DNA of 64,000 bases from Eledone cirrhosa (taxonomy: Eukaryota). Where the stretch lies: assembly GCA_964016885.1 (NCBI GenBank), contig OZ024742.1:329468001-329532000 (forward strand), given 5' to 3'. Position numbers and translations under genes: made by a program. Positions within the stretch are counted from its first letter, which is position 1. Each line of letters begins with the position of its first letter. This document shows, in pieces, positions 6,378 through 49,377 of this stretch. The notes beneath the pieces were generated by a model. It saw only the letters and a program-made list of their open reading frames with translations. It was not told the origin of the DNA and made no database searches.

Positions 6378-6656
6378 AAATATATTATACGGAAAAAATG
6401 AAACGAAATTTCATTTCTCAATATTAGTACGACTGTTACTTAAATATAAGTATGTATACGTACGTACATATATGTATACAGACGTACAGTAGTATGTATA
6501 TATATATATATACATGCACACATATATATATTGTACGTATGGATTCACCGAACATTTATTATAATGCTCGGTGTGTTTGTAAACAAACATTCCGAATTAA
6601 GCCGTACAGTGTCTAGCAACCACCGTTGCTCATTTGTTCAACACTGACAAAGGAAT

Positions 6657-6695
6657 GCTGTAATAGTTTCAAGCTTTTTAGCTATCGTCAGCAAC
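6657..6695 (-). ncRNA. Minimal type I hammerhead ribozyme motif
   Basis: gttg-CTGACGA-t-agct-aaaa-agct-t-GAAA-ctat-TA-cagc; stem I gttg/cagc, stem II agct/agct; stem III has a mismatch. Confidence 0.7.
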
Positions 6696-7048
6696 GTATA
6701 CCTTCCTGCCAGATGGGTGAACGTCTGAAAGTATGAACTTTCCTTATGCATATTAACGGCTGAGCAGCCTAATTTGCATATCGTGTGAGTTAATCGGTCG
6801 GGGTACCGAAAACGATAAACGGAAATAATGAAACGAAATTTCATTTCTCACTCTTAGTTCGGCTGTTACTTAAATATAGTATGTATACGTACATACATAT
6901 ATGTATACAGACGTACAGTAGTATGAATGTATACTAATGTATATCGCCGATTAACTCACTCGATATGCTAATTAGGCTGCTCAGTCGTTAATATACATAA
7001 GGAATGTTTATACGTTCAGACGTTCAACCATCTGGCAGGAAGGTATAC

Positions 7049-7087
7049 GTTGCTGACGATAGCTAATAAGCTTTAAACTAGTACAGC
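7049..7087 (+). ncRNA. Minimal hammerhead motif (GAAA mutated to TAAA)
   Basis: gttg-CTGACGA-tagctaataagctt-TAAA-ctag-TA-cagc; palindromic stem III ACTAGT. Confidence 0.65.
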
Positions 7088-7220
7088 CTTCCTTTGTCAG
7101 GGTTGAACAAATGACCAACGATGGTTGCTAGACACTGTAGCGCTTAATTCGGGATGTTTGTTTACAAACACAACGGGCATTATAATAAATGTTCGGTGAA
7201 TGCATACGTACATATATAAT

Positions 7221-7409
7221 TGTTTCTACTGTTGGCACAAGGCCAGCAAATACCCAGTGCATTACTGGTACTTTATTTGATCGACCCCGTAGGGATGAAA
7301 GGCAAAGTCAACCTCGGCGGGATTTGAACTTAGATCGTAAAGGGACATAACTATGCTGGAAAGCATGGTGTCCGATCCTCTACCGATACTGCCAATCCAC
7401 CGCCAATCC
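7221..7409 (-). mobile_element. SINE family A, near full length, inside retrozyme array 1
   Basis: Reverse complement has A-box-like tggcagtatcgg, B-box-like aagttcaaatccc, central gcctttcatccctacggggtcgat, tail agtagaaacaattat. Confidence 0.9.
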
Positions 7410-7784
7410 ACAAATGAGCAACGATGGTTGCTAGGTACTGTAGGGCTTAATTCGGGATGTTTGTTTATAAACACACCGAGCATTATAATAAATGTTCGCT
7501 GAATCCATACGTACATACATAATGTGTGTATGTATGTATATATATATATATACATACTACTGTACGTCTGTATACATATATGTATGTACGTATACATACT
7601 TATATTTAAGTAACAGCCGTACTAAGAGTGAGAAATGAAATTTCATTTCATTTTTTTCCGTTTATCGTTTTCAGTACCCCGGCCGATTAACTCACTCGAT
7701 ATGCAAATTAGGCAGCTCAGCCGTAAATATGCATCAGGAAATTTTATACTTTCAGACGTTCAACCATCTGGCAGGAAGGTATAC

Positions 7785-7822
7785 ATTGCTGAGATAGCTA
7801 ATAAGCTTGAAACTATTACAGC
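7785..7822 (+). ncRNA. Minimal hammerhead motif (1-nt core deletion)
   Basis: attg-CTGA-GA-tagctaataagctt-GAAA-ctat-TA-cagc. Confidence 0.6.
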
Positions 7823-9159
7823 ATTCCTTTGTCAGGGTTGAACAAATGAGCAACGATGGTTGCTAGGCACTGTACGGCTTAATTCGGGATGTTTGTTTAC
7901 AAACACACCGAGCATTATAATAAATGTTCGCTGAATCCATACGTACATATATATATGTGTGCATGTATGTATATATATATATACATACTACTGTACGTCC
8001 GTATACATATATGTATGTACGTATACATACTTATATATATATGTATGTATATGTATGGATAATTGTCCAATTTGCTTATTGATGCATTCGTTATATATAT
8101 ATGCATCTCTTAATGCTCTTTGCGTATCAAGTCATTGCTAGATGTTTCAGTTGCCTTATATAGTATAGTTACCAGCATATGTTAGGAACTTGCGTGTTTT
8201 TCACAAACCATACCTATTTGAAAGAGAAAATAATTTCATATACGATTAATAGAATTAATTTCCTATATAGTTTCATAATATATAATATTGATAAATTGAT
8301 AATTGTTGTGGACAATTGTCGACGTGCCTTTTGCCAGAATAATATGTAATTATATCAGATGTGAAGTGGTGTATCTAATCGAGAAACTTATACATGTCCG
8401 TTTTATCACTGTGTAATCTAGATGTTGATTAAATTGAAAGATATAAAATCTAATCTATTGTCACCCGCTTGCATGACTAATATCGGAATTGAGATTATTA
8501 AACTTACAAATGTTAAATCCTTAAACATACAACGGTGCCTTAATCTATCTTAATATTGCATTAAATCAACCAAACAATTGACAAGCAGTTAATATCATCT
8601 GTATTGTGGCTGTAATAATCATTAAAATAGTATATCGGAGTTTCCGTTAGCTTCAGTAATGATATTCAACTTATATTCATTTGTTAGTTTGCCCCAAGTC
8701 TACATGACTTGGTAAAGGAGCATTATATCAATGTCAATACTTCGTTGGGTTATTTATATAGATCCAGAAAATCAATTTTGATGTTGATGAGATTTGAACT
8801 CAATGTTCTCTCATTCTGAAAACACTACAATTTGTTTTATAAGCCATTTTACTCCTCTTCTGGCTAAATAACATGATTAACATGTGAGAGAAACAAATCA
8901 ACGTATATATATTATTATACATTACAGTAGTAGAGAATCACTAGAACAATTGCCAGTTTCCAGAACAAAACGCCTAATAACAAAACGCCAACATGACTGT
9001 TGCATTACCTCTATAGCAAATAACACTTTGGTGGGCTGCATCCAGTAATACATAAACCATATTTTAGAAAGGAATGAGAAGAGAAATTGATTAATGCAAC
9101 TGCATCCAATCAAATTGGATTGTAACAATACGCTTTATTTCACATTGCTCCAGTTAGCT

Positions 9160-9555
9160 CAGACTCTGACTCAGAAGATCCCGCGTCTTGCGACGCATGA
9201 GGCAATCATAGTGTTCCACCGCGTTCGGTCAGCAGCCAGTTGCACAGCGTCCCGCCATTGTCTGTTTGTCGCTCGCAGGTCCTTCTCAACTGTCTGGTGC
9301 CAGTTCAATTTGGCTCACCCTCTCCGTCTGCTTCCCAGGGTTCCATTTAAGTACTTGGTTCGCCAGTCTCTCCGGGGGAAGTCTCAAAGCGTGCCCAAAC
9401 TAGCCCAGGCGCCGCTTGCAGATGGCCGAAGAGACTAGCTGCTGGTTGGTGCGGTTCCTGACTTCCTGGTTTGTTACATGGTCACTCCATTTAATCCCCA
9501 GGATCTTTCGCAGACACCTGGAATCGAATGCGTCCAACTTCTTCGCTTGGCTGGT
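9160..9555 (-). mobile_element. RTE-clade LINE 3' fragment
   Basis: KKLDAFDSRCLRKILGIKWSDHVTNQEV...RRLG*FGHALR, a typical RTE post-RT C-terminus, ending in a short tgagtc-type tail. Confidence 0.85.
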
Positions 9556-11614
9556 AAAAATGAATTCTACCTCTAAATCAAAGTTCAACCTTATCACACA
9601 CGGGGTCAGGTTTAATCCCCTTGAGGAATATGTTGCGACTGTATGTCTCTGCTGAATAGTTAATTGCACTAAATACTATGATCCGGCGTTTCTGTTATCC
9701 AAAATTGGCGTCGAAACCTTTGGAGATTCAACCCAAGTTTGATTATATGTCTACCCAGTCTAAGATCACTCGCGGTTAAATAACAAATGCAAATAAGATA
9801 CCTGAAATTCCTGATCTTAATGTATACTATCAGAAAGAAGACGTGATATATAAACATGCAGAAATAAAGTAGATTGTGTAAATATCCACATAGAATTTCT
9901 CGTATAAAGTGATAACATTTAACATTATTGGCACTTTACATTTCTCATGAATTATAATCTAATCGGTTAAAAGGGATAATCTGGCAAAAGTCGGAAATCA
10001 AGGATGACGAAATAACAGTGATATACATGTAACAACATTTTGTAAGATAATCATGTGTGGAAACCGATAAATCAATGCTAGAGCTAACAATTATTCATAA
10101 ATGAGGATGGAAACTTTACACATCTGGTCAATGAATCGTAATTGGTATATTGCATGGAAAGGATTACACACGGAAATGATAAAAGACAAATGGAGTATCC
10201 TTTCCGAGATAGAATTTCTAATGGAATACATTCTATTTGTGTTACTTAATGAATAATTTTCAGGGGGTTATTAAAGATATTAATTAATCCATTACTATTA
10301 AGATTGTGTAAATATCTACATAGCATTTCTCGTATAGAAAGGTTCTTAAGAAAGGTTCTTATATGAAACTAAATCAGACGGTTTTAATCTAAATAATTTG
10401 ATTTGTTTCATAGAACTAGAAAAGGTTTTCATTTTGTTCATATTAAAGGGGTGAAACACACCATTTCAATTTTTGTCGTCTGGTCATAAATGCAATGATC
10501 CCACAGCGCCTCAAGGAAAGTATGCATTGCAACATTACTCCGTGACTTTCTCCAGAGATTTAACAGTCATTACTTCTAGAAATGAAATATGTGCTGTAAA
10601 GTTCATAACGTTGACGAGTGAGACTGTTTGACATGAATGAATTTAATTTGTTCTGATAGGGTATCAATCTCTAGATGCTATCAAAGACTTACAACATTGG
10701 ATCATAGCAACTGTACCTCATTCTTGTTATTTCCACCACGAATGTGATTAACACTTGCGCACTGGGTTTTGATGAGAGAATCCATAACGCAAACAAACGA
10801 CTTCAACATAAATGTAACATTAGGAAAGTTTTAAATCAACCCGAATGAAAGAGTACACGAAACTACACCAGCTGTCATTGACTATTACATTCAGTAATTG
10901 CCATTTCTACATATACTAAGTATCATTCAGTTTTAATATCACGTCTCTACTTAGATGCCTAATTAAATGATTAGTAAGTATTGTCATTCCTTGTAACGTT
11001 TAAAACAATTCATATCATCTCACGAAAAATAATTTCCCATTACAGTATGGAAAAAGCACCATGATATGGATGAGTACCAGTCCTCTATGTTCAATCCTAC
11101 TCAATGCTGATGAAGGTAAATGTGAACTCGCTCATGTAGGGAGATAAACAGAGATGAAGCAATTATATCTAAAGTTCGTTAAGCAGGAGAATTACACTAA
11201 GAAATTATATTCCTGTCCTCACAAAAAAAGTATTATGCGTTAGTTTTATAACACGATAAATATATATATATATAGTATATAAATGTAAAGTTAACACTAA
11301 GGACTCAATTTATTCATATATAGGAGCTACCTCTAACAAAGGTAAGATTTAATACACACAAACATAGTTTTAAAAATGCCGCACTAGCTAATACATCTCT
11401 AGCTGAAATAATAAATAGTTATAGAAAGAGGAATATAGAATATGACCTGACCTGGAGTGTGCTCAAAAGGGCCACCACTTATCAAAATAGTAGAAATGAA
11501 TGTAGATTATGTTCCCAAGAACTTTTTGAAATAATGAAATCTAAGGATATCCTATTAAATAAGCGAGAGGAATTAATAATATCGTGCAATCATAAACTGA
11601 GAAAAACCTTTAAA

Positions 11615-11836
11615 TATTATAAACCTAATTAATATACACTTTAGAAATTAATTTATAAATTATTTTTAATTTAGTTAACCTATAATTAATATTCTACTAC
11701 TGATGAACTACATAATTCTGCTTTAAAAATTATAAACCTAATTAATATACACTTTTGAAATTAATATATAAACTATTTTTAATTTAGTTAACCTATAATT
11801 AATATTCTACTACTGATGAACTACATAATTTTGCTT
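11615..11836 (+). repeat. ~116-bp tandem duplication in the PLE 3' UTR
   Basis: attataaacctaattaatatacactt...ctactgatgaactacataatt occurs twice. Confidence 0.9.
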
Positions 11837-12051
11837 TCCTTCTTACAAATATCATTTCCTAAAACTGATACCATTAAGTAAACATATATAATGCTTTAAC
11901 TTCAGGTTATGACTCTATGTTCCTTGAAAACTATATATATTTACTATTTCTCACTAATAAATTTAATCCCCCCCCAATAATTATATGTATATATAAGTGT
12001 ATATGTGTGTGTATATGTATGTGTATGTATATATATATGCATGTATATATC

Positions 12052-12096
<45 letters not shown>

Positions 12097-12113
12097 ATAT
12101 ATATAGGTATATG

Positions 12114-12148
<35 letters not shown>

Positions 12149-12182
12149 GTGTATATATATGTATATATATGTATATATATGA

Positions 12183-12252
<70 letters not shown>

Positions 12253-12933
12253 ATGTGTATATATATGTATATATATATATGTATAAGTATATATATATTA
12301 TTTTTATATTCTTTTAATTTCCCCTCATCTTTAACAGCACTTTTCAACTGCATCTAACTCTTATTTATCATATCTATATGTATTAGTATAATTTTATCAA
12401 TATAAATATACCCATCAATTAAATTAATTTATATTCTTTTCATAGATGTATTTTTTTCACTAACATTCTTATCTTAAAACTTTAGTCACCTTAGATATTT
12501 GTATTGGCATTACTATTTTATAACAGCAACTGCTTGTATACCTTTTACTGACCACCTGACCTATTTTCACCCCTAAAATAAGCTTCACTTACTACTATTT
12601 TACCATTTGGCCAATTATTAACTTTCTATTGGTTAATTCTAAACCTCTTACCAAACAGACAGAACATATTAGATCTGTGTTGGTTTTATTCAATGAAAAA
12701 ATAAAATTATTACTTAGGTCAGCATAAGACCTATTTCTTCCCTAAAATAATCCTTCATTCATAATATTCTTTTCCATCCAAAACTGAAATCTACCTTCCT
12801 CTACCCATAATTTAAGGTTCTTCTACTACTATATTATTATCCTCACCCTCACTATCTCTCTATTGGTCAATTCAAAACCTGTTCCCAAACAGACCTATTG
12901 TATTGAATCTTTGTTTTTTTCAATAAACAAATA

Positions 12934-13075
12934 TCATTATTTCTGAAGACAGCATATATATGTGTAGGTATGTATATTCCCTCTGATAGTTTGTATACAT
13001 ATTGTACATAGATCTATAGAATATGCATACCAACTCTAACACATATATATCCTAGAAACGATCGTAAAATGATGA
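12934..13075 (+). ncRNA. Hammerhead ribozyme with a ~105-nt extended stem II
   Basis: Stem I tcattattt/aaatgatga (9 bp); CTGAAGA 12943-12949; GAAA 13055-13058; palindromic stem III ACGATCGT; GUA triplet. Confidence 0.75.
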
Positions 13076-13366
13076 ATTTTTTTAATATAAGGAACTATTT
13101 CTTTGTTTATTCATTATTTTCTTAATTTATCTTGACTCTGTTTTCCGTTTATTTTTCACCGAAAGTAGTTTTTGAATGCATCTTCTCTTTTCATGATATC
13201 CGGATTACATTGAGTTCTTCATACGGATTGGACACTACCGTAAACTTTTGGTAGATGTATCTACATATATATATATATATATAAATATATAAATATATAT
13301 ATATATAATAATGTATACACAGACACCCATACGCACACACAGAGACGTATATATATATATATATAT

Positions 13367-13429
<63 letters not shown>

Positions 13430-13441
13430 TTTATGTATGTA

Positions 13442-13486
<45 letters not shown>

Positions 13487-14425
13487 GCGTGTGTGTGTGT
13501 GACCGCGTGCGTGTGTTCTTGTGTGTGCGCGTGTGTCTGCAGTGTTAGTGGAAAATTACGTTGAACATTGGGAATGCGGGATATATATCTAGATAATCCG
13601 TTACTTAAAATCAAAACGATGATTCTTAACGCAGGTTAGTCAATCGAGAAGAAATTTCAGCCAAGCTTTCCCCAATCACACATTACAATCATAAATACAA
13701 GGCGATGAAGACACAATTTTCACTCTGGTATGTAATGGTAGGAATATCATTTTGAATAATGTTAGGAAGATGATTTTGAATAATGGATCTGAATATGATA
13801 TCCATTTTATCTCATATTCCATAATACAAGAAATAAAAAAGAACTCGAAAAATGTCCTCCTTAATCTGAATCAACCTGAACATAAAAGTTTCGAGTGAGG
13901 TTCCTTCTCTTTATTATTTCCACAAAAGAAGCATGTGTTTGGCTGTTTCTTTTCTACTACCCTCGAACTGCAAAGTCTTGGGCCTGCTCCTGTTTTCACT
14001 AAATCCTACCAACTTTTATTTTAACTGAAATCCATGATAGCTTACCTCATTCTATAAAACGGACCAACCAACAAACACCTAATTATTCGTACATCAAACA
14101 TCGGTTATTAGAAAGTCAACAATTCGAAACGAAAATCTCTTATGACATGCCAGCCTTATTTTTGTATTCACTGATATGTCATAATGACTCCGGTTATACA
14201 GTCTCATGATGATGCTGCTTTAGAACTATAACGCTATCCTGTTTACTGAAAAAAAAAAATAATAATAATTTGAACCAGTGCCCTACATTGTCTCACCTTC
14301 TACAACAAAACATCCGCTCTTTTTGTCTAAAATCTTTCCTGCTCGCTTGCAGCTGTCGCAATTTACCACTTTGTAGTCAAGCGTTTTCGTGTAGTAAGTG
14401 TAGCAAACATTTTTATCAATATCAC

Positions 14426-15970
14426 GGCCGCTCTGAACGTTTGGTATCTAGATGATGCTACATTGGGCGGGCCGGTACGGACGGTCTGCCAAGACCTTCA
14501 ATCGGTGATTCCTGCCCTGGTGGGAATCGGCCTCCAGGTCAACTCGGCCAAGTTGGAGGTGGTGAACGTCAGCCTCGATGCTGCGAGATTTGCAGCCTCC
14601 GACTTGGACGTGCGGTCCATTCTCCGCCAGGTTCAGGTGACCCCTAAAGAGGATGTCCTCATCCTCGTGTCACCGATCCACCCGCCGGCCATCCGCTCCA
14701 CCATCAGGTCCAGGCTTCAACAGCTCCAGACTCTCATGAGCCGACTGGGCTTGATTGACGGCCACCCTGCTCTCTTTCTGCTGAGGAACTGCTTCGCCAT
14801 GCCGAAGCTCCTCTATACACTCCGCAGCGCTCCATGCTACACCCAGACATCTGTCCTCGCTGACCTCGATACTTGTATCCGAGCAGCAGCCGAGGGGATA
14901 TGCACCGTAAAGTTTGACGACATAGGGTGGCAACAGGCTACTTTACCGGTCAGGTATGGCGGCCTAGGCCTCCGATCCCTGATCTCACTAGCTTTGCCGG
15001 CGTATCTTTCGTCGGTAACCTCGTGCCGCGTCCTCGTCAACAGGGTTCTTCAAAACACAACAGAACCCCCTGTGTTCAGAGAACGTGAGGCCGCCTGTGA
15101 GACGTGGGACCGGCTGGGACATAGCCCAGTAGACGTCCCTCCTCCTTCTTCCCCTGTTGACGTCAAGTCCCCCCAAGGCACTTGGGATGCCATCCAGTGC
15201 AGCCTGGCCTCAGACAGGCTCACGCGCCAGCTCGACCAGCACCGCCTTGATTTTTTTCGTGCGGCCTCCAAACTCCACAGTGGTGCCTGGCTCCATGCTC
15301 TGCCCTCCTTCTCCACTGGCACGCAGCTAGAGAACCATAGCCTGCGAATCGGCGTTTCCCTGAGGCTCGGCCTCCCGATCTGCCAGCCACACCAATGTCG
15401 CTGCGGTTCCACCGTGGACTCTTTCGGCCTCCACCCGCTTTCCTGTCGCCACAGTGCCGGCCGTATTCCACGCCATACTGCCCTCAACGAGGTCATTAAG
15501 CATGGCTTGGACCCTGCAGGCTTCCCTTCCCAGCTCGAGCCGGTGGGGCTGGATCGAGGGGACCGCAAAAGGCCAGATAGCATGACCATCTTCCCGTTCC
15601 GCTGTGGCAAACCCCTCGTCTGAGATGCCACTTGCACCGATACATTTTGCAGCCGCAACCTGGTGCAGTCTGCGACTGACCCAAGTTCTGCTGCACGTCG
15701 GGCTGAGGGGGCCAAACTCCTCAAATACCTGTCGCACTCCGACAGGTTTGCGGCGTTCCCCTGGCAGTGGAAACTTCTGGTGTCCTCGGCCCCAGGGCTA
15801 CCTCCTTACTCACCACCATAGGCGCTGAGCTGGCTAGCAGCAGGTGTGAGCTCCGTGAGTTGGAGTGGCATTTCCAGCGCGTCTCCCTTGCCGTCCTCCT
15901 GGAAACGCCTTCTCCATTCTGTCCGCCGGGGCTGTGGGTAGGCCCCATCGCGTACCAATACATTAGTTAA
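14426..15970 (+). mobile_element. CRE-like non-LTR retrotransposon, 5'-truncated (RT C-terminal half, CCHC knuckle, restriction-like endonuclease)
   Basis: WYLDDATLGG; QATLPVRYGGLG; CRCG..VD..GLHPLSC..RH..N; EPVGLDRGDRKRPD; ETSGVLG; FQRVSLAV; GC-rich island; premature stop at 15621 and frameshifts. Confidence 0.9.
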
Positions 15971-17079
15971 ATACCATTCTTTCATCGTTACAACTTATAT
16001 CCACATTAATGACGTATTATATTGGTTGCTTTTGCATTAAATTTGATCTGTCTCGAAAAAAAAAAAAAATCATAAGAAATAAATGTTTCTTGTATTTTTT
16101 TATTGCCCATGATATTTCATCAGGTATCTATCAACGTTTTTAATAAATGAAGACGTACTATGACAATATGCATTTCAGGTAATCCTAGAAGTTGGAAAGG
16201 GGATAATGATGTTAAAGTCCGGCTGCAGGCAAAGTATTATGAGGAAACTAGATGGCAAATATATATCTTTATTATTTGATGCAAATCTATTGTGGACGAA
16301 TTTGACAAAGCAGATGATAGTAATTTAGGAGTAAAATTGGGGAAGGAGAAAAACAGTGGAGATTATAAATATATTGATTGTAAAGAGATCCTGGTGAACA
16401 ACAGAAAGGAGCTGATCGTTTAGATCGCACATATACGTTCAAATATTGAAAAGCATCTTCTCCGACTTCTTAACAATTCCCTAGTTACCTGTCCCTGTTT
16501 CAGGTATATTCGCGGATCTCCAGTTAAGGACGACCTTGCATTAGGTATAAAGTTAAAAGCCATAACAATATAAATGTATAGGCATCTTTGAAAATGAAAC
16601 CTAATTAGAGACACAGAACATGAGGCAAGAGATGTGGTGACGTATTAAATTGATAGAGACGATGTCTGTCACAGTGATCGCAGGGACTGGCAGAGCACAT
16701 CCGTGTCAATTCTATTATTTGCTTATATTTTGGCGTCATCTAGAAATTGAATACATAATCTGTGTGAATTAGAGCTGATGACTTCACTACATGTCTTGCG
16801 TCATAATGTGATGATGTAAGCCTGGTAGCCATAGAAAAACGTATTGTGATTTTTCGTAATGTTAGAGGAATACTTGTTATCCGGTCTGTTTTTTCCCCTG
16901 AAGTATTGCACTCCCTTTCTGCAACAGCCACAAAATGCCACACCAACGATGTATGATACGCACATCTTTGAGGGCTTTTTCTTAATCCATCAAGTCTGCT
17001 CTTCATTAAGTTTAGTTTAACCCATTAGTTAAACCATCCAAAATAAATGGCAGTTAGATAGATTGACACATAGATAGAT

Positions 17080-17354
<275 letters not shown>

Positions 17355-17771
17355 GAACTAGATTAGTAGATTTAATCCCAGCGTTTCACCACAAAATTCA
17401 CTATGTGAAACTAAATAATAAGCCAGCATCATATCAGTTCACTACGGAACTTCACCTATAATAAAACTGGCATCGTATCAAAAAATGGTATACAATATTT
17501 TTTATACTTCATATCCAACGGCGTCACAAAGTCTTCATCCATATATAAAACTTAAATGCTATAAAGAGTTCAATCAATATAAACCAACAATAGGAATTAA
17601 AAGAATTTGGCGCTGTTAATAAGAAACAGGTAAAAAAAGAGAAAATAACTATTCTGGAAAGACTATGAGAAACATAGTCGATAAGATTTTATGCTGCTGA
17701 GTAGTTGCGGAAAATTCAAACTGGCTAATTTGTGAAAATATTAGGAGTGATATTTACGTACGTACATATAT

Positions 17772-17825
<54 letters not shown>

Positions 17826-17833
17826 CACGCACG

Positions 17834-17915
<82 letters not shown>

Positions 17916-18038
17916 TACACACACACATATACATATATATATATATGCGTGTTTGTATGTGTGTGTGTATGTTTATCAGTAGCAGGCAGAATATCGATAG
18001 TTTTAGTAAATACTGTATTTAATAAGACGCAAATACCT

Positions 18039-18101
<63 letters not shown>

Positions 18102-18179
18102 TGTCTTACTGGAGAAATGTTGGGAGATCAGCAACATTAGTTACAATCATATGATAGGATTATATTCGCGACCGATAGG

Positions 18180-18310
18180 GCATTGAGCTGCCAGAATTAT
18201 TTGCTCGTCGGACAGAAGGCGTTGCGATACATTTTCTGTCCTTTATGTTCTGAGGTCATATTTCACCGATTTCAACTTTGCCTTCCATCATTTCAGGTGT
18301 TATAAATAAA
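18180..18310 (+). mobile_element. Degenerate SINE related to family A
   Basis: ctttatgttctgaggtcatatttcaccga..aactttgccttccatc resembles the family A core. Confidence 0.6.
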
Positions 18311-23209: not shown

Positions 23210-23545
23210 TAATACAAACACACAGATATCTGTACACACATTTACGCACACAAACAAACACTCACATGCCAGTACACAAACACACGCAAACACGCAAACA
23301 GTACACGTACGCACACAAACACACACATATGCCAGTACACACACGAACGCACACAAACCAACACACATGTCAGTATACACACGTACGCACACAAACACAC
23401 ATATTACAGCACAAACACATACGCACACAAACACACACACATTCCACATATACGTACGGACACAAACACACACATATGCCAGTAAAAATACGCAAGCACA
23501 CAAACACACATACTTGCCAGTGCAGACTTACATACGCACACTAAC
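23210..23545. repeat. Degenerate CA-rich minisatellite
   Basis: Recurring acgtacgcacacaaacacacacatatgccagta motif. Confidence 0.85.
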
Positions 23546-23688
23546 ACTGCGTGTATACAACTATAAATACAATTCTCCATATAATAAACGCTGCATCGTG
23601 ACTGATAAAATCATGAGTAGAAAAGTAAATGGAAAAGAAGGATATGAACAGCAATCCAGAGATGATCATGTTAGAATGGGTGAAATAA

Positions 23689-23690
<2 letters not shown>

Positions 23691-23781
<91 letters not shown>

Positions 23782-23884
23782 TAGTATAGTATTAGTAGTA
23801 CTAGTAGTAGTGGTGGTGGTAGTGGTAGTAGTAGTAGCAACAGCAGCAGCAGCAGTAGTAGTAGTAGTAGTATTGGCGGTGGTG

Positions 23885-23930
<46 letters not shown>

Positions 23931-23989
23931 CAGAAGCAGCAATACTACTACTGCCACTGCTACTACCACCACTACTACTACTGCTGCTG

Positions 23990-24022
<33 letters not shown>
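23691..24022. repeat. (GTA)n followed by the complementary (CTA)n trinucleotide tract
   Basis: Read directly. Confidence 0.95.
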
Positions 24023-25479
24023 ATGCTTGGTGTTTTCGTTTTGTTGCTGGTATTCATCTGATATACCAATTACTCAGAGATACAAGTCAGACAACGACTG
24101 TCACTTGCAGTCTTACAATACAAGCTACAACAACAGAAAAAATCAACAACAAATACATCAAAGACACCAGCAGCAATATTAACAGCATCACTAACCCCAC
24201 CACCACTATCAACAACAACACCTATACTAACAGAAACACGTGACAAAAAACCTCAAATTCAATAGAAAACAACAAAGATAACAACACCATCATCCGCAAA
24301 GCAACAAAAACGAGAAACAATGACAAAAGGAAGAACTAAATAACACCAACAACAAAACATCTAAAACATCTACCACTATGATGAACAACATAAACAAGAT
24401 AGACAACAGTAGTCAGTTTTTTGAGGAGAAAGCCGATGATTGATTTCATTCTTAAAAATATATTAGATGACAATAATAGTTTTACTGAGTAAAGTCAATC
24501 TATGTCTAGATTTGGGTTAGAGGTTAGAGATATTATCCGATATCATAAATTATATATGCAATATTTTGTAGGAAAAAGTAGGGGTCCGGTGCCAAATTCG
24601 AGAATATGGTTAGAGATACACTGGTAGATAGCCTCCCATATAATACAAAATAAATATAGTTACATAAGCAAGACCTACGCCTGAGTGTGGCTGTATACAC
24701 AATATATCTGAGAAATGAAAACAACAACAACAACGAAAAGGAGGAAGAAAAAAGTAATTTCGCCCTATAAGGAAGAAATAGTTTCAGCTTATATACAACA
24801 ATTGTTACAGCGCATTGTTGGCAAACAATTCGCTAAAGCCACACTGATCAAAAACCATATACTCACTTCTCTTAGTCAACAGTAAAAGTAGTTTGGCAAG
24901 AGTGGGTATTGAATTGCATATGTGTTATCATTTAAATGTGATAGATTTAAAGAGCTCTATTTGCGTTCTTAGAAGAAAATGTGACATAAAGTTGTGTTCA
25001 AACTACTCATGAGTTGAAAAGTAATTGGATTGCGGAAATCTAGAATATTCCTAAACTATATAACACATAATATATCGTAGAATAATGAATTTATAAATTT
25101 AATGAAGAAATACGGTTTTATATATTCCAGTTCAGTATATTCTCTTACAGCGCAGGCGATATGTACATTTTAAAGGCATTAATATGTCTCTGAAATGTTA
25201 TTTCATGCGTCCTCGTCAGTCAAGTGCTGAAAATGTAAACAATATTCTAGTTTTGATTTTGGCATTTGATAAGACCGTGATCGAATGATTGTTGTGCATT
25301 CAGATTACAACAGGGCTCTGATGGTCAAAGTTATCTATATACATATGTACATATATATACATACTCACAATTACACACATACATACATATATGAATGCAT
25401 ATATATACATATGCATGTTTGTGTGAGGCTATGTATTTTATGGATATATACATATACACACACACACACACACATATAA

Positions 25480-25543
<64 letters not shown>

Positions 25544-25621
25544 AGATACAAATATATTATGAATAAACTATATTATATGTACGTTCATAAATGTGAATGG
25601 AATATATTATAAATATGACAA

Positions 25622-25808
25622 GGGCGGTGGATTGGCAGTATCTGTAGAGAGTCGGACACCATGCTTTGAAGCATAGAATTACGCCCCTTTATGATCTGAG
25701 TTCAAATCCCGTCGTGGTTAACTTTGCCTTTCATCCCTACGGAGTAGATAAAATAAAGTACCAGTAGTACACTGGATATTTGCTGGCCTTATTCCAAGAG
25801 TAGAAACA
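25622..25808 (+). mobile_element. SINE family A, full length, with 16-bp TSD
   Basis: gggcggtggattggcag head, B-box gagttcaaatccc; TSD attataaata(t/c)gacaa at 25606-25621 and 25809-25824. Confidence 0.92.
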
Positions 25809-25903
25809 ATTATAAATACGACAACGAGAATAAAATCGAATTGATTTTGAAAGAACTTCCTTTTATAACCAAGTAACATCGCCTTGTGTATCGAGAGGAC
25901 CAC

Positions 25904-25936
<33 letters not shown>

Positions 25937-26287
25937 ATATATGATGATTATCATCATCATATATATATATATATATACAATTGATGATGATGATGATGAT
26001 GATGATGATAATGATGATGATGATGGTGGACTCTCCCGTCCATACCGACGTATGAGAAACGAACAACCGATTTAGTTCATTCAGCTCGGACATGACGTTT
26101 TGAGTCTGCCAAGTATTTGCAAAGAATTTCACAGATCGTGCAAGAATGGAATTTACTGGATAATTTTGCTTGTATATGTGATAATGTTTTCGTTTCGTAA
26201 GGTATATTACTTGTTCAAAGATTACTTTTTGCCTTTGTACGTTTGTGTCAAGGCTGTGTACCCTTTCTCCATCCATCATCAAACTGG

Positions 26288-26350
<63 letters not shown>

Positions 26351-26693
26351 TATATAAATATATATTTATTAAAATAATTATTATTACTATATATAAATAT
26401 ATATATTTATGTGTGTTTGTATAATATGTATATATGTGTTTGGTGTATGTATATATATATATATGTGTATATATATAGTATATATATATATATCGTATGT
26501 GTATATATGTGTATAAAATATATATAAAATGTGTGTGTGTATATGTGTCTGTATATGTATGTGTGTGTATATATGTGTGTATGAATGTGTACGTATATGT
26601 GTATATATATATATGTATATATATATATGTATATATGTATATGTGGGTGTGTATATCTGTATATATATATATGGGTGTGTATGTGTATGTATG

Positions 26694-26766
<73 letters not shown>

Positions 26767-26768
<2 letters not shown>

Positions 26769-27410
26769 TCATCATCATCATCATCAACAACATTTAACGT
26801 CCGTGTTCCACGCTTGCATGGGTTTGGACGGGGGTAGTCCCACTTGAGGCAAGAGTGATTGCCTTGCTCGCATAGGACTGTCTGGCAGGTTTTCTACAGT
26901 TGGATGCCCTTCCTAACACCAACCACATTTACAGTGTGGGTCTGGGAGGTTTTTACCGTGTTGCCTACACGGCCACATTACAGCGTGGACTGTGTGTTTT
27001 TTTGTTGTGACACCTACACGATCTCATTTGTTTCGGCCTGGATGGCGCGGCACCAACATAACTTTACATAGAACGGGGTGGTGTGGATGGGGGTGGGACG
27101 GGGTGTATTTTGTTAGAGATGCCTACTGGCTGTAGTAGGTTTTACTATGTATTTAGGTAAGGCGGGTCTTCTCTGTTACTGAGTACCGCCAAAGGTCTCG
27201 GTCCAGTGACATTGTCTTGGAGAGGTGTAAGTGTGTGAGGTCGGAGTTTATCAGCTCGTCCCAGGTTTTTCTAGGTCTGCCTATTCCGTGGCTACCGTCT
27301 ATCTTTATTGCCCTGCACTTTGTTATACAGCTATCGACTTTCATGCGCATCACGTGTCCATACCAACGTAGCCTTCTCTCGAGTAAACAACATCTGATCC
27401 CTCTTATTTT
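26767..27410 (-). mobile_element. RTE-clade LINE 3' end with (ATG)n tail
   Basis: RRLRWYGHVMRM...GRPRKTW...DRDLWR; 3' UTR ends in (gat)n. Confidence 0.88.
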
Positions 27411-27828
27411 ATATATATGTATATCTGTGTTGATATGTGTTTGTATGTAGTATATATGGACTGTAGATATATTTACATATAGGGAAGTGAATATGTGAGC
27501 CAGCATGTCCCCCACACTTCCACCCCCAGACCAATATCAACAACACATATTTGACAAATGTTCCCAAACTATCCTTCATTTTTCTTTTTCCTGTCATCCC
27601 ATTCTTATCAAAACACATGTATCTTACACCTCATTAACACCCAGACAAGCACCGAAATTCATCTTTGATATAGAAATTTGTAGAAGATATTCGTTATGAA
27701 TTAGGAAGAATTGATTCAGCTATGACATTATATACTCATCAAACGTCAGCTAATGAACTAAAGCCAGCAGGAGAGCATATCTATGACCACCTTCTCAAAT
27801 CTTACAACCTCATCATTTTCTGAGTATG

Positions 27829-27935
<107 letters not shown>

Positions 27936-28318
27936 GTGTCTGTACGTGTGTGTGTGTTGTTATGTATATATACTTTAATTCCTCTGGACCTTCATCATCA
28001 TCAACAGTCATTAACACCACATGCCACACCTCAGACACATCCAAATCTCTCTTGTATATATAGTCACACATTTCAACACAACCTGATCTCAGTTTGACAA
28101 TCGCCACAGACAGACGAATGCGAGAAAGTTCTCCAAACCAAGTTAACCAGGAATTTCTAACATACTTCCCACCGAAGGTAACAAAGAACTTACTGGATCT
28201 ACCAACTCATAATATTATAACATTAAATCATAAATTTGTTAACACTACAAGTGAATTCATTCTTTTTCGTTTTTTTCAAATGTACCTAACTGTACCCAAG
28301 GATCTCACACATTTTCCA

Positions 28319-28351
<33 letters not shown>

Positions 28352-28372
28352 GCAATATATATGAAATATGCA

Positions 28373-28401
<29 letters not shown>

Positions 28402-28405
<4 letters not shown>

Positions 28406-28557
28406 ACTACATAAAAACACATATCAACACAGATATACATATATATAAAATAAGAGGGATCAGATGTTGTTTACTCGAGAGAAGGCTACGTTGGTATGGA
28501 CACGTGATGCGCATGAAAGTCGATAGCTGTATAACAAAGTGCAGGGCAATAAAGATA
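28402..28557. repeat. 156-bp inverted duplication of 27300-27455
   Basis: Reverse complement matches with one mismatch and spans the LINE/flank junction. Confidence 0.92.
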
Positions 28558-28559
28558 TA

Positions 28560-30596
28560 TATATGAAATATGCACAGTCACGACTAATAACTCTTCAGAA
28601 ACCTATGTAGGCTCCACTTCTAACTGCTTCAAAATCAGATATAACTCGCACATCCACTCGTTCAAAAAGCACAGCCTAGCCAACTCCACCTCACTTTCTA
28701 GCTACATACACTATCTAAAATCTAAAAATAAACCATACACACTCAAATGGGAAGTGATAGGCAGCGCGACCTCGTACAAACCACCTAATAAATTCTGTAA
28801 CCTCTGTATTCTAGAGACACACAATATTATCTTCTCCAACCGTAACCTACTTAACAAAAAATCTGAGGTGTTTGCAACTTGCCAGCACCGCCTCAGACAT
28901 TCCTTCCAAAACTTTAAGCCCTATATATAGCAATGTCGGACTGGAACCTAACACCACATCTAGCATCAAACACCAGAAACACACCCTATACTACATACCC
29001 AACACTAGCTGATCCATTATAACACAAACAACGACATCCCTCTGGAACCCTTCGCAGGGAAAATACCCATTTATACCTCTACGGCAGGTGTGACAACATC
29101 CACCCACTTGATGGCACTACACCGCTCTAAGGGTAATTTGAGCATGAATTGATCGGTTGGATGGTGTTGGGCAGAGGAAACACCTTCCTTAGACAGATGT
29201 AAAATGATTTAATCGAGTAGCGCTGTTGACCAGTAGGACCGGGCTGCTGAGCGCAGTGAGTGAATGCAATGCAACTGCCGTGCGGGTTGTACGTATATGG
29301 ATGATCTGACGGTCAGAGAGGGGTCGCGAGGACTGCGGATTGACCTTGGCCTGCCTGGGGACGATTATCTTTCGACATCCAATGTAGCAAGCGATGACCC
29401 AGATCTTACCAGAGATCATTGGGTCCTGAAGCAATCCTGCAATCACCGCGCCTGGTCATATGAGCAGACTACAACCACAGAGATCATTAATTTAGAATCC
29501 TCGCTCATCATCTATAATTTCCATTTGTAGCACCTTAAGATGGGTTAATCCACCTTAATAATAATATAAACTACTCTATAGTTAGTACACTTTATGCTTT
29601 AAAAGTCTCTCTTGGAAGGTGCACCTCACCATAGAATTTAGGGTCTATATTGGGACACATTTTAATGGCTAGATATAGAAACCCCAGAGTTACCTCCCCG
29701 CATGCATTAACTCCCCTTAGCCACACACACACTTCCGGTATTCAATGGCGTTTCTCGAAACGTAACATCCCCCTGTATCGAACTAAAGAACACCAGACTA
29801 CGATCTCTTACTGGATTGTCGTGGATTATGTGAAAGGCATATAATCGAAATATACACTCCCTTGACCATGAAAATGCCGAAGTACATGAATTACTTGACA
29901 TCCCTGCGCTGTGCATCTCCAATACTTATAACACTTTTAATGCTTGCACTATCTTTAATGCTTATAATATTTCTCCACACACAGACTATATCAATCATAT
30001 AAAGACTTTGCCACCAGACCTACCAACCTAACACTCTTATTTACCTACCTAAGTGCCTCTACCACACATATCTCTCTGCCACACTATATAAACAAGACGC
30101 ACATGCGTGCCACACATATAACATTTGCACTATATAACCACTTATCTTCATGTTGTACTTTAACCTATATCTTTGATTTTTGATTGTACCTATTAATATA
30201 GTTGTAATCTCGAAGTGTGTACTGCCACTCTAAATTCTGTAATGAATGTTGACCCACAATGTTTGAATATGTATCAATGTTTGAATATGTATTTGGTATG
30301 TCTCTCGGCTGAAAAGGAGGTCATATAACTGTCCATGCATTAATAAATTGCTCCGAAGAATCCAAACCTCGGTTTGGAGGAAACAGCTGTAAGCACAATA
30401 ATGTTTTGAACAGTTCTTTGATTCTTATATTTCATATAACTGCTCTGTAAATCATCTGATGTTTTTACATTGAGCTACTTAACTTACTGGTAATAAGGTA
30501 GTAATACATTACTGCCTACCACTATTTAGGGTGTGTGTAAAATACTTACAACTGCTTAAGGTTTTGTATTTACATAACCATAAATAGTATAACTAA

Positions 30597-30600
<4 letters not shown>
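28560..30600 (+). mobile_element. 5'-truncated Naiad-type Penelope-like element
   Basis: 28601-28921 TYVGSTSNCFKIRYNSH..STSLSSY..LKWEVI..FCNLCILE..LLNKKSEVFATCQH; long 3' UTR; HHR at 30349; ends in (TA)n. Confidence 0.88.
30349..30395 (+). ncRNA. Hammerhead motif with variant core CCGAAGA
   Basis: tgct-CCGAAGA-a-tccaaacc-tc-ggtttgga-g-GAAA-cagctg-TA-agca. Confidence 0.7.
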
Positions 30601-30658
<58 letters not shown>

Positions 30659-30764
30659 CGAACATTTTCGCTCTGCATGGCTGAATACAATAAATGTAAT
30701 CTGAGTTTTTCGAATATTAATAATTACATTTAATTCGTTTGCAATTATGCATACAACCTTCAAT

Positions 30765-30807
30765 CTGCAGACACTAATGTTTCTGGGTTCACCCTTCGTC
30801 AGTACAG
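30765..30807 (-). ncRNA. Minimal type I hammerhead ribozyme, intact core
   Basis: ctgta-CTGACGA-a-ggg-tgaa-ccc-a-GAAA-cattagtg-TC-tgcag; 5-bp stem I, near-palindromic stem III, GUC triplet. Confidence 0.82.
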
Positions 30808-30875
30808 CTCATTGTTCACCTGCCAAACTGTCAGAGCTAGTGAAAATATTTGCTATTTTCAAAATTACACAGGGA

Positions 30876-30974
30876 CTGATCGGCCTGATTTGCATATTAG
30901 CAGACTCGCTGATCAGTCAGATCTGCATATTAGCAGATCCACTGATCAGCCAGATGTGCATATCAGCAGACTGG
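30876..30974. repeat. 33-bp minisatellite x3 carrying an octamer motif
   Basis: ctgatc(g/a)g...gat(t/c/g)tgcatat(t/c)agcaga three times; exact ATTTGCAT at 30888-30895. Confidence 0.88.
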
Positions 30975-31096
30975 CCAGTCACTTTCCTGTGTACGAGCGA
31001 TAAATGGCCGGCTTTGCTAAATTCAAATAAAAAAGAAAATGTTCGCTCTACATGGCTGAATACAATAAATGTAATCTGAGTTGTTCGTATATTAAT

Positions 31097-31278
31097 AATT
31101 GTTTCTACTTTAGGCACAAGGCCAGCAATTACCCAGTGCATTACTGGTACTTTATTTTATCGACCCCGTAGGGATGAAAGGCAAAGTCAACCTCGGCGGG
31201 ATTTGAACTCAGATCGTAAAGGGACGTAACTATGTTGGAAAGCATGGCGTCCGACTCTCTACCGATACTCCCAATCCT
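31097..31278 (-). mobile_element. SINE family A inserted in retrozyme-like element 2
   Basis: Highly similar to 7221-7409. Confidence 0.92.
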
Positions 31279-32727
31279 CGATTCGTTTGCAATTATGCAA
31301 ACAAGCCTCAACTTTACAGCCATGTCAGTAGAATGAACCCTTCAGTCTTGCTCGTGTGTTGGCATGTGAACAGAACATTCTACTGACATGGCTATAACAT
31401 TGAGGCTTGTTTGCATAATTGCAAACGAATCGAATGTTATTAATATTCGAAAATCTCAGATTACATTTATATATATATGATTCCTTTTATTTCAATCAAG
31501 GCATTGTAGAGTTGTTGGATGTGCGTATTTTACACTATATTGGTTGTTAACAACTAACTTGCGAACAACTCATAGAAAGTTGAAGAAAAGCCGGAAAAAT
31601 CAAAATTAAAACTATATACATATATATAAATGTATCGCAAGTATTCATGGTTTGGGACGAGGAAATATACAAAATATAAAAACTAATTACTAACAACTGT
31701 TTCTTTGTAGGCGGCTATCGATTGCAGCGGTGTGGTGGCTTCCCCATTAACTCCGAATTTAGGATGTTTCTAAATTAGGATGATTTATGAGGGCACTTTA
31801 TGAGAAACGAACTTTGGAATCTACTCACTATTTCGCCAAGGATTATTAGATATTTATACAGTGCAGAAAGTTCTTTCAGATTCAATTATCCCAGCTTTCC
31901 AATGTTATTGGTTAACTTTCCTTCTGTTATATACAGATAGTATTTCGCTCTATTCATCTGTCAATATATCCACTTCTATACGACCATGTATGACATCCCT
32001 TTACTTTGTAAAAAATAAATATTTGACTCTAGAAGGGTTTTGTTGGCTTGGCATACGTAAACATTGCTTAGATAAACATTACAGATATATCTATTTATCC
32101 GTTTTATCGTAGGTATCTGCTGAATTGATTTATATCTGTATGTGTACGCATGTATATAGGTCGACTGTGCACAGTATTTGATTGTGTTTGTGTGCATTTC
32201 CATATTTGTGGTTGTGTAAGCCTTCATATTTGTTTAGCGCGGGATATAGAAGATCTTTATAGAATGTGGATCCTTGTGGAACAGCACAATACACTTGAAA
32301 TGACAAGTTCTTATCTCAATAATGAATTTGTGATAATAGAAAATGCATTCCCTTGAACGGAAATATATAAATAAGATGTCAACTCTTCTTTATTTCAAGA
32401 GGATTAAGATTCATATGCCCGAGAATTAAGGCAGTAAGACTTTTAAAGTATGCATGCTTTATAAGTAGTTAACGATAGCTATGTGTATATCATCAAAAGA
32501 GGCACTTACATTGTAGATATATAAAAAGCTACTCATATCACTGCATATATGAGTTGCTTATTTTAGACCTGTAACTCAGCGTGAAATGGTAGTGGCACTT
32601 TATTTTCAAACGGTGTTTCTTGGGCATTTTATGCTGGACATGGACATTTTACGTCTGGACATGGTAGATTTCCTTCAGAGATTGACAGAAAGTGAGAGAG
32701 AGAGAGAAAAATATATGAAGGAAAAAT

Positions 32728-32860
32728 TGATCCCAGCACTAGACTGGTACTTTTTTATTTACCTCGGCGGGATTTGAACTCAGATAGCTGAGAGAAGGAA
32801 TAAATGACACAAAGCATTCGATCTGACGTTCTAACGACTCTGCCAATTCGCCACCTTATA
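32728..32860 (-). mobile_element. SINE family A relative, internally deleted
   Basis: actggtact...acctcggcgggatttgaactcaga...ctgccaattcgccacc. Confidence 0.75.
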
Positions 32861-33099
32861 CTCGAATATTATCTACAGAGACTATTAAATGAAAGCCAAC
32901 CATTGAAATAATTAGAGGTTGTTGTTGTTTTCCTTGTTAATATAATATACTCGATCATTCCAATCATATTTACCAGATAATATCTAAACTCCCATAATAT
33001 TTGCGCGTGATTATGTATACGTGAATGAATATTGTTTTCTCACCATAATCTTCTGATGATTCATTCGAACAAGAAGCCCTTGCAATTATAAGGGAAGCT

Positions 33100-33540
33100 T
33101 CTATATTATTGCCCCATTTAGCAAGATGCTGGCACTCATTACTATCTCTGTCACTGGTTCACGAGAACCAGATGACATTCCAAGTATAGCTTAAACGTCT
33201 CTGTTGGATGCGCCTAAGAACCTGAACCATGCTTTATATGAGTAAAGACCATGTTTTATATGAGTAAAGAAGAGATGCCTCTACATATGTACCATGAACT
33301 GAAATATGTGTTACCAATGTGATAACTTGTTGAGAATCGACACCAGATTTAAGAAACCTCAAGGTCTCAGTTGCTTTGAGACACCGCGCAGATATTTCTT
33401 CATCTAAGCAGAAAAAAAGAAAAAAACAGAATATACTGTTCGGAGAGACGAAACTGTGTATTTCTGTCAGCCTACTAAAATAGTACAACAGTCCGGTCCG
33501 GGCTAATTCAGATTCCTTACACACTCCTGAAATGACAATT
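33100..33540 (-). mobile_element. Decayed RTE-clade LINE fragment
   Basis: LDEEISARCLKA...LLYSYKTW (cf. DDEI..RI.KA; LLYG.ETW). Confidence 0.6.
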
Positions 33541-33862
33541 TAATATCTTCAGTCGCATGTAAATTATGTGCAAAAAAGATATCATGTACAATAAGACTTT
33601 CGAATCAGGTGTATATAATCGGATATTGAAGAGACATCTGGATGCACGGCAGCTGAAAGAATGACCGCATTATGGAGTGCGGATACTGCTCGCATACTTT
33701 CCTTGTCTCGTCTCAGCACCGATGCTTTTTAAAGCACATGGACAAAATATGGTTGTGCGAAAGGACACTTATCTTTATGGCAGTAGGTAAATGCTATTCG
33801 AACATAAAAAAAGTTTGCCAAAACATGCAAAAAACAGTTTTCGTTAATTATGTCGGGCACCT

Positions 33863-34340
33863 CTTGGTGGCGTTATCTGCCAGTGTCATCCATAGCTCTG
33901 GCTTTATAAACGTTTAATTATAACCACATCGTATTTCTTTAGAAATACGGAATTCAAATACATATTTGTATAAAGCTATGTTCGAAGCTAAATTCTTATT
34001 CTATTCCATTTTAAGTTGAGCCAACTTATATAGCTTAATATGCAAATAAGATTAATCACCTCATTTACACCGACGAAAATAACCTATATATTTTCGTCTG
34101 TTTTAAAAGTCCGGCAGTTGCAAGAGCGGGAGAGATCGTCCTGACGAGAACCATTTGAGTTCGCAATGTATAGACGGTTGTCCTTCTTACATTTTGCCGA
34201 GCTCTGCTTGGTGGCGTTAGCTGCCAGTGTCATTCATAGCTATGACTTTCTAAATGTTCATTTATAAATATACCTTATTTCTTTAGAAATACGATATTCA
34301 AATATATATTGGTATGCAGCTATGTTGGAAGTGGAATTCT
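33863..34340 (+). mobile_element. Retrozyme-like element 3: ~345-bp unit, ~1.4 copies
   Basis: cttggtggcgtta(t/g)ctgccagtgtcat...aattct repeated at 33863 and 34208; octamer 34040-34047; decayed HHR at 34135. Confidence 0.7.
34135..34178 (+). ncRNA. Decayed minimal hammerhead
   Basis: atcgtc-CTGACGA-gaac-catttga-gttc-GCAA-tgta-TA-gacggt; 6-bp stem I, 4-bp stem II; GAAA mutated to GCAA; stem III ATGTAT could be CpG-decayed ACGCGT. Confidence 0.68.

Positions 34341-49343: not shown

Positions 49344-49377
<34 letters not shown>

Follow-up and report, generated by a model that had tools for sequence, protein, structure and literature searches.

Newt satellite 2, a hammerhead ribozyme repeat, has a small nuclear RNA (snRNA)-type promoter containing an octamer, and the promoter of the Schistosoma repeat Sm-alpha, which resembles that of a short interspersed nuclear element (SINE), is tRNA-derived and gene-internal. 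In Sm-alpha, cleavage parts the promoter from the body, hence a tandem is required for propagation (PMC6765202). Retrozymes are described in a review as seemingly promoterless, their strong expression being left to read-through (PMC7761336), and circularisation by a host ligase has been demonstrated in vitro for other retrozymes (PMC7229834). Penelope-like elements form partial tandems with inverted 5′ copies, a one-ended tail and (TA)n targets (PMC8557442, PMC4209133); their minimal hammerheads have no or a minimal helix III, a helix II of 7-8 bp, a helix I of 4-5 bp and a poor loop 1 (PMC4209133). Here, we analysed a stretch of 64,000 nucleotides (nt) from the cephalopod Eledone cirrhosa (assembly GCA_964016885.1, contig OZ024742.1, positions 329,468,001 to 329,532,000, forward strand), hereafter the window, which carries three families of hammerhead repeats (A, B and C) with the octamer ATGCAAAT upstream of the ribozyme.

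We propose that these families belong to one related group of non-coding retrozymes that would cleave themselves, be reinserted by Penelope-type machinery and use a U6-type upstream element with a TATA box as an internal promoter, most likely for RNA polymerase III (Pol III). On sequence comparison, we hold this with about evenly balanced confidence.

Families and their relatedness

Genome searches returned 3381, 2333 and 2241 candidates for families A, B and C, respectively. Majority sequences were built from the 28 (A), 30 (B) and 30 (C) best-matching loci, two overlapping A loci having been excluded; these 88 loci were the best matches to a near-unit query and were taken as 3.3-kb loci with 1.5-kb flanks. 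As a background sample we used 140 blocks of 10 kb (1.4 Mb) taken at set round coordinates along the seven largest contigs of the genome, which comprises 3.0 Gb at 36% GC and has several chromosomes of ~380-440 Mb. The blocks held 17 A, 3 B and 4 C loci, which extrapolates to ~36,000, ~6,000 and ~9,000 copies, rough figures based on small counts and on large chromosomes only. The best genomic copies were ~95% (A), 94% (B) and 85% (C) identical to the window copies.

The units measure 429 bp in A, 438 bp in B and 341 bp in C, and 466, ~350 and 308 bp in three further families, D, E and F. An earlier annotation made from the letters of the window alone (the sequence-only reading) had come close for A and C (~432 and ~345 bp) and had missed for B (375 bp). 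The GC content of the units is 0.35-0.39, that is, below 50%. In antisense, stop-to-stop frames of 119 and 124 amino acids overlap A and B; no match to a Penelope protein lies inside or abuts the units, in agreement with the non-coding character first ascribed to them.

The three families had also been taken to be unrelated, a view that fails because their monomers align above shuffles and are thus homologous. Full-length monomer alignments beat 200 of 200 shuffles (z 7.4 for A-B, 6.7 for A-C and 8.8 for B-C, at 56-62% identity); in an earlier shuffle set the z values were 9.6, 4.8 and 9.3, and the top shuffle exceeded A-C. Further pairs gave z values of 26.6 (A-D), 11.0 (C-F), 10.2 (C-E), 7.3 (E-F) and 5.5 (C-D), and alignments of B with D and of B with E were at background level. 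When promoter and ribozyme were removed, only A-D, C-F and B-C beat all 200 shuffles; the score was reached by one shuffle for E-F, one for C-E, two for A-B, two for A-F and five for A-C. A hairpin 70-112 nt past the cut site is common to all six monomers. By these alignments, the monomers of families A to F form one connected homology network. Their shared layout is therefore inheritance under constraint and not convergence, and we rejected convergence of unrelated families on this ground.

Family D (L189:6900-7730, L236 and L121) came to light solely through the shape of its ribozyme, and three of three copies carry the octamer element. Family E, found via three matrix matches (see below), is older, at ~80% identity (L220, L276-L288), and its eight-locus majority sequence has an intact ribozyme and a TATA box at 42 nt. 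Family F (L290-L299), recovered through ribozyme shape in sequence that was cut off upstream, has a unit of 308-310 bp and a low copy number (13 candidates); most of its copies are 97-99% identical, and it forms near-perfect arrays of at least 10 units, frequently with inverted arms (for example, L297). F is the youngest family and the best candidate for a retrozyme active at present. Subfamilies of A were seen at L137 and L254: one has 8 nt deleted between TATA and helix I, giving a 422-bp unit, and one forms five tandem units of ~466 bp, the first three of which are identical.

Hammerhead ribozymes

Intact cores are present in the majority sequences of A, B, C, D and E, as the sequence-only reading would have them for the first three, and CTGANGA..GAAA is retained in 26 of 28 A, 28 of 30 B and 16 of 30 C loci. 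Helix I is long, with up to ~20 predicted pairs. It starts at the GGCAG motif and is closed by a downstream TGCC/TGTC block; GGCAG does sit 14, 17 and 23 nt before the core, as had been noticed, but it is the 5′ strand of helix I and not a separate block. Helix II has 4-5 bp. Helix III consists of 1 bp with a palindromic loop in A, C and D and of 3 bp in B. The ribozymes had been called minimal; with a long helix I, a helix II of this length and a helix III, they are instead canonical, and a minimal hammerhead of the Penelope kind was excluded on the same three features. By the definitions in PMC4209133, their sequences and predicted pairings place them in the canonical metazoan type.

Changes on both sides of a pair distinguish the C subfamilies at position 5 of helix I and positions 1-3 of helix II, likewise occur within D, and across families the helices change letters yet remain paired. 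Many single-copy changes disrupt pairs, as is expected because copies decay. A hammerhead descriptor matched 75 times in the 1.4-Mb blocks and 0, 1 and 0 times in three shuffles. Across all sequence examined it gave 172 matches in 19 clusters, with the octamer in 4 (A-D) and absent in 15. Circular monomers are predicted to fold better than 40 shuffles each (z -9.3 for A, -11.0 for B, -4.2 for C and -14.0 for D). A scan of the window against Rfam (E ≤ 1) gave 134 matches, none of them to a hammerhead family.

One of the clusters (cluster 5) holds a hammerhead-like motif whose 5′ flank is its own reverse complement. It occurs at six places, including L151 (minus strand, near 6987), and one copy sits 1.9 kb after a Penelope-like open reading frame (ORF).

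Upstream element and TATA box

In the majority sequences the octamer lies 69-71 nt before GGCAG and a TATA box 27-28 nt before it. The octamer-to-TATA distance is 42 nt in A, 43 in B, 43 in C, 41 in D and 42 in E, and the TATA-to-helix I distance varies. The sequence-only reading had stressed the distance from octamer to core: its gaps of 80, 85 and 93 nt are present in the sequence, and octamer spacing does go beyond background (85 octamers per Mb on both strands of the 1.4 Mb, ~6 × 10−4 per given 14-nt range), but the fixed distance is that from octamer to TATA instead.

The same element stands upstream of host small-RNA genes. We found 48 U6 loci and compared 20: the octamer stands at -76/-77 in two single genes, a version differing by one base stands at -77/-78 in 10 of the 16 loci of an array, and the two dispersed copies are without it. 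Three independent U6 promoters thereby combine the element with TATA at -30/-31. RNase MRP (1 of 1) has the octamer at -77 and TATA at -30/-31. U6atac has the variant at -77 with TATA at -30/-31 in one of five loci, the other four resembling retrocopies. In the two full-score tRNA-Sec genes the octamer is at -79 and TATA at -30/-31. The match between repeats and host genes spans 12 nt on the same strand (TATGCAAAT-T/G/C-AG). No octamer was found upstream of U1 (0/12, 300 nt searched), U2 (0/3) or RNase P (0/1, 130 nt searched). In 6 of the 16 U6 array copies (among L093-L103 and L106-L110, contig C19) a SINE, the same as that at 7212-7404 of the window, lies between element and TATA and would disrupt promoter spacing. 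Host U1, U2 and RNase P genes (L111-L122, L270-L272, L129) share TCAGT at -56 to -58 (-66 in RNase P), an AT-rich box ~33 nt upstream and a TATA-like box near -30; in this, RNase P is closer to the Pol II snRNA genes than to U6.

A matrix was built from five host promoters. On this matrix, the elements of A to D correspond to a background frequency of 6-9 × 10−6 per position, and 24 of the 25 sites at or above threshold in the 1.4 Mb lie inside these repeats. A chance match of the octamer in AT-rich DNA would be favoured by a genome of 36% GC and by the motif having first been chosen after the fact; against the matrix background, and with the octamer recurring in family D, which had not been picked by it, with TATA at the same distance, it is highly improbable and largely refuted.

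Several points weigh against an internal Pol III promoter. The matrix threshold was the lowest family score, and family A supplies 16 of the 25 matches. Spacing from element to TATA is 46-48 nt in seven of seven host Pol III promoters and 41-43 nt in the repeats, with no overlap. Family F, predicted beforehand to carry the element, is homologous yet octamer-free. Runs of T5-T6 stand upstream of the element in A, B and D, though not in the C majority sequence, and would stop most Pol III read-through in those three families. Within families the element is conserved only as well as the spacer, which is uninformative. Element and TATA both fall inside predicted hairpins, and the TATA box, in an AT-rich one, may be RNA structure. 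In the window, the A and B copies have degraded TATA boxes. Since the families share ancestry, they are not independent replicates.

The same internal snRNA-type promoter could be read by RNA polymerase II (Pol II), if the shorter spacing switched the polymerase and T runs did not terminate it. In fly and plant snRNA genes, polymerase choice is made by spacing. The 41-43 nt of the repeats fall between the geometry of host U1/U2 genes (~33-35, same register) and that of the U6 class, the T runs lie within the A, B and D units, and newt satellite transcripts are seemingly Pol II products (PMC6765202). In its letters, however, the element belongs to the Pol III class, and it is missing upstream of the 12 U1 and 3 U2 genes; we consider Pol II transcription fairly unlikely. 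A U1/U2-type promoter was also tried for family F: positions align, but the background fractions (0.02 in the core and 0.18 in the wide model) are not significant. A relative (L056) had a fraction of 0.004 on the core matrix, where host leave-one-out values are at most 8 × 10−4.

These could also be ordinary retrozymes transcribed by read-through from host promoters, with the octamer serving as a POU-factor site or part of an RNA hairpin and the TATA box as a hairpin loop. The predicted hairpins, the spread of family F without the element and the review's view of retrozymes as seemingly promoterless (PMC7761336) all suit this explanation. It is nevertheless quite unlikely, given a 12-nt host match plus TATA at a fixed distance in five families that are 55-62% identical where aligned, and given that such sites are almost absent outside these repeats. 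The Pol III promoter is our preferred reading. The internal promoter first suspected gains support insofar as the octamer lies within a host Pol III type 3 upstream element and is paired with TATA; it is not universal, as family F shows.

Copies in the window

The octamer was located, as first listed, at 6772-6779 (minus), 7701-7708 (plus), 30888-30895 (minus) and 34040-34047 (plus), and CTGACGA at 6685-6691 (minus), 7053-7059 (plus), 30796-30802 (minus) and 34141-34147 (plus). Partial tandems had been described throughout. Locus C is one, whereas locus A is a head-to-head inversion, not a single tandem, and is interrupted by a SINE (6389-6933 minus, 6946-8036 plus).

6389-6933, minus: family A minus arm, ~1.3 units, terminating at the longer of two fixed 3′ ends
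6645-6710, minus: family A type I hammerhead, core intact (CTGACGA 6685-6691, GAAA)
6769-6780, minus: family A 12-nt element TATGCAAATTAG with octamer core, identical to the host U6/tRNA-Sec upstream element
6946-8036, plus: family A plus arm, ~2 units of 429 bp, SINE-interrupted
6964-6975, plus: variant element TATGCTAATTAG, the same variant as in the host U6 array
7034-7099, plus: family A hammerhead with broken core, TAAA replacing GAAA (core 7053-7059)
7212-7404, minus: high-copy SINE insert foreign to the unit, strand inferred from a B-box-like motif
7700-7711, plus: family A 12-nt element, TATA degraded in this copy
7770-7834, plus: family A hammerhead downstream of the 7701 octamer, CUGANGA box short by one base
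30657-31470, minus: family B insertion, unit 438 bp, with a short inverted 5′ arm, SINE (31086-31277), promoter region, hammerhead and a 3′ end in (TA)29
30765-30824, minus: family B hammerhead, core intact (30796-30802), helix III of 3 bp
30875-30972, minus: tandem of three 33-bp copies of the octamer-containing element, the proximal one (30885-30896) being TATGCAAATCAG
33863-34348, plus: family C partial tandem, unit 341 bp, ~1.4 units
34039-34050, plus: family C element, one mismatch against the family's TATGCAAATGAG
34085-34090, plus: family C TATA box, in this copy 45 nt past the start of the octamer (family majority 43)
34113-34206, plus: family C hammerhead, GGCAG (34113-34117) opening helix I, core 34141-34147

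Only two of the five ribozyme sites in the window, those at 6691 and 30802 (both minus), have an unbroken core. In the hammerhead at 6645-6710, GGCAG (6706-6710) forms the 5′ strand of helix I, loop 3 departs from the family A palindrome, and the cut is predicted after 6661; the TATA box that belongs to the element at 6769-6780 is degraded. The plus arm of locus A ends at the shorter fixed 3′ end, within a TA-rich tract. The SINE of locus A is also present in locus B. There, the apparent period of 375 bp arises because of a ~63-nt deletion in that copy, which has also removed the distal partner of helix I. In the family C hammerhead, GCAA replaces GAAA.

An inverted pair of ~70-nt arms at 6232-6387 adjoins locus A. 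Long inverted repeats also occur at 49372-49753 (189 nt, 99%), 59272-60398 (216 nt, 95%) and 27300-28557 (182 nt, 95%), and those of the window are probably inverted transposon arms. Elsewhere, a broken element resembling a long interspersed nuclear element (44471-47596) has an RVT_1 domain in 45324-46679 and, by reading, an endonuclease-like ORF before it. A 430-amino-acid ORF at 14331-15623 resembles, by reading, the C-terminal part of a non-LTR (long terminal repeat) retrotransposon and has no Pfam match.

Insertion pattern and relation to Penelope

The 5′ ends of A to C insertions are ragged, and each family has two fixed 3′ ends, 37-56 nt apart (219/275 nt past the cut in A, 143/180 in B and about 135-143/184 in C). 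Units are joined head to tail with nothing intervening, and 27 of 28 A, 24 of 30 B and 27 of 30 C insertions exceed one unit (78 of 88 in total). An inverted 5′ arm is present in 12/28, 13/30 and 12/30 loci, and the 3′ end lies at (TA)n in 18/28, 25/30 and 11/30, respectively. As judged from these loci, the architecture matches that of Penelope-like insertions. A Pol III terminator was considered as what fixes the 3′ end; it suits A and B, where T6 adjoins the long 3′ end, and not C, which has none there.

Penelope-like ORFs of up to 821 amino acids occur in the 1.4-Mb blocks. Pfam gave only sub-threshold GIY-YIG matches on them; by their reverse transcriptase (RT) motif and GIY-YIG-like C-terminal region they are probably of the Penelope family. 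In the window, fragments of such ORFs with GIY-YIG-like ends lie at 11324-11632, 28553-28930 and 62606-63076, and a 113-bp tandem at 11608-11837 contains CTGATGA with no complete ribozyme.

We also weighed whether the units derive from autonomous Penelope-like elements, either as solo pseudo-LTRs or through deletion, with the ORF-bearing parents lying outside our sample. The insertion architecture is Penelope-like, and the sample consisted of ~90 best-matching loci with 1.5-kb flanks plus 1.4 Mb, whereas Penelope 3′ regions reach 1.4-2.9 kb. However, matches to Penelope proteins were not enriched (10 of 88 family loci of 3.3 kb versus 41 of 420 background windows), and in the 10 cases inspected no match abuts a unit, in line with the proposal that units are not always joined to Penelope coding sequence. 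In the fixed blocks, no Penelope match lay within 3 kb upstream of a ribozyme in A (0/21), B (0/1) or C (0/1); one of two D copies had a match 2.6 kb away with another ribozyme class between. Nor was a Penelope partner sharing sequence with the units found. With units joined directly and ribozymes canonical, not minimal, this origin is decidedly unlikely, and pseudo-LTRs flanking an ORF with RT and GIY-YIG were rejected within the sample of 88 loci. Given that no Penelope ORF is attached, the units are non-autonomous, and Penelope-type machinery likely mobilises them in trans. Intact cores, unit structure, Penelope-style insertion and the absence of an attached ORF support the retrozyme identity that was first suggested.

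Proposed mechanism

Under the favoured Pol III reading, host snRNA-promoter factors would bind the element and the TATA box, and transcription would start, by the host rule, ~30 nt after TATA, inside the 5′ strand of helix I and ~8-29 nt before the catalytic core. Because this start is downstream of the promoter, the promoter would be copied only when transcription runs on into a second unit, and the partial tandem would be the minimal transmissible form. Hammerheads would then cut at unit intervals to give unit-length RNAs; A, C and D, with their 1-bp helix III and palindromic loop, would likely cut as dimers, and B possibly as a monomer. A host ligase would close the circles, and a Penelope-type RT/GIY-YIG protein would start from a fixed point lying 135-275 nt beyond the cut, with insertion at (TA)n.

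More broadly, and more tentatively, a retrozyme superfamily with tens of thousands of loci may have captured the host's U6-class promoter within its circular RNA unit, and would then be the first retroelement with a ribozyme to carry a promoter of Pol III type 3; we rate this somewhat short of an even chance. If true, cleavage and Penelope tandem insertion would overcome the loss of an upstream promoter on retrotransposition, the 5-nt shorter spacing would amount to a third geometry among snRNA promoters, and the sister family F would have exchanged or lost the element.

The element, TATA box and predicted start offer a testable answer on retrozyme transcription. Tens of thousands of U6-class motifs have been scattered genome-wide by these repeats, which hold nearly all strong matches in the sampled DNA. 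The comparison also gives the likely U6, MRP and tRNA-Sec promoter anatomy of this animal, which is useful for guide-RNA expression.

Comparison with known systems

Tandem units of ~150-450 bp, the retrozyme range, were found in A, B and C, and by sequence the families agree with metazoan non-LTR retrozymes in every testable feature checked. Such retrozymes are also marked by linear and circular monomer RNAs, self-cleavage in vitro, a large target-site duplication and the lack of a PBS or PPT; the frequent (TA)n ends seen here hide duplications. Like those of coral, mussel and axolotl (PMC7229834), they combine a type I hammerhead with tandem non-coding units of a few hundred bp, a GC content below 50%, a self-paired predicted circle and coexisting Penelope elements, and family A shares with axolotl HHR_Amex2 a U-U mismatch at the base of helix II (PMC7229834). 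They differ in that most loci have one to three units with Penelope-style inversions and not long arrays, F excepted, and in having a host U6-class element and TATA where retrozymes are said to seem promoterless (PMC7761336). Neither a cephalopod retrozyme nor an snRNA or Pol III promoter in retrozymes was found in the open-access literature, with Repbase and Dfam outside this scope and other invertebrates possibly listed in the supplement of PMC7229834.

Penelope pseudo-LTRs with minimal hammerheads (PMC4209133, PMC8557442) share the partial tandems, inverted 5′ copies, one-ended tail and (TA)n, whereas the units here lack an ORF and have a canonical ribozyme. Newt and salamander satellite 2 is alike in its canonical hammerhead with 1-bp helix III and palindromic loop, its 330-430 bp repeat and the proposal of its own promoter; it is a reported Pol II transcript (PMC6765202), whereas the element here matches the host Pol III class. 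Schistosoma Sm-alpha, which is transcribed by Pol III, is likewise alike in having a promoter and then a hammerhead, but its promoter is SINE-like (PMC6765202) and that found here is an upstream-type U6-class element with TATA. The host type 3 Pol III promoters (U6, RNase MRP and tRNA-Sec) likewise place the 12-nt element, in the same orientation, ahead of TATA, with spacing of 46-48 and not 41-43 nt, and here the element is located within a mobile repeat. The promoters of newt and schistosome hammerhead repeats are precedents that limit novelty: the retrozyme class is already known, and the new part is the U6-class element with TATA inside the units.

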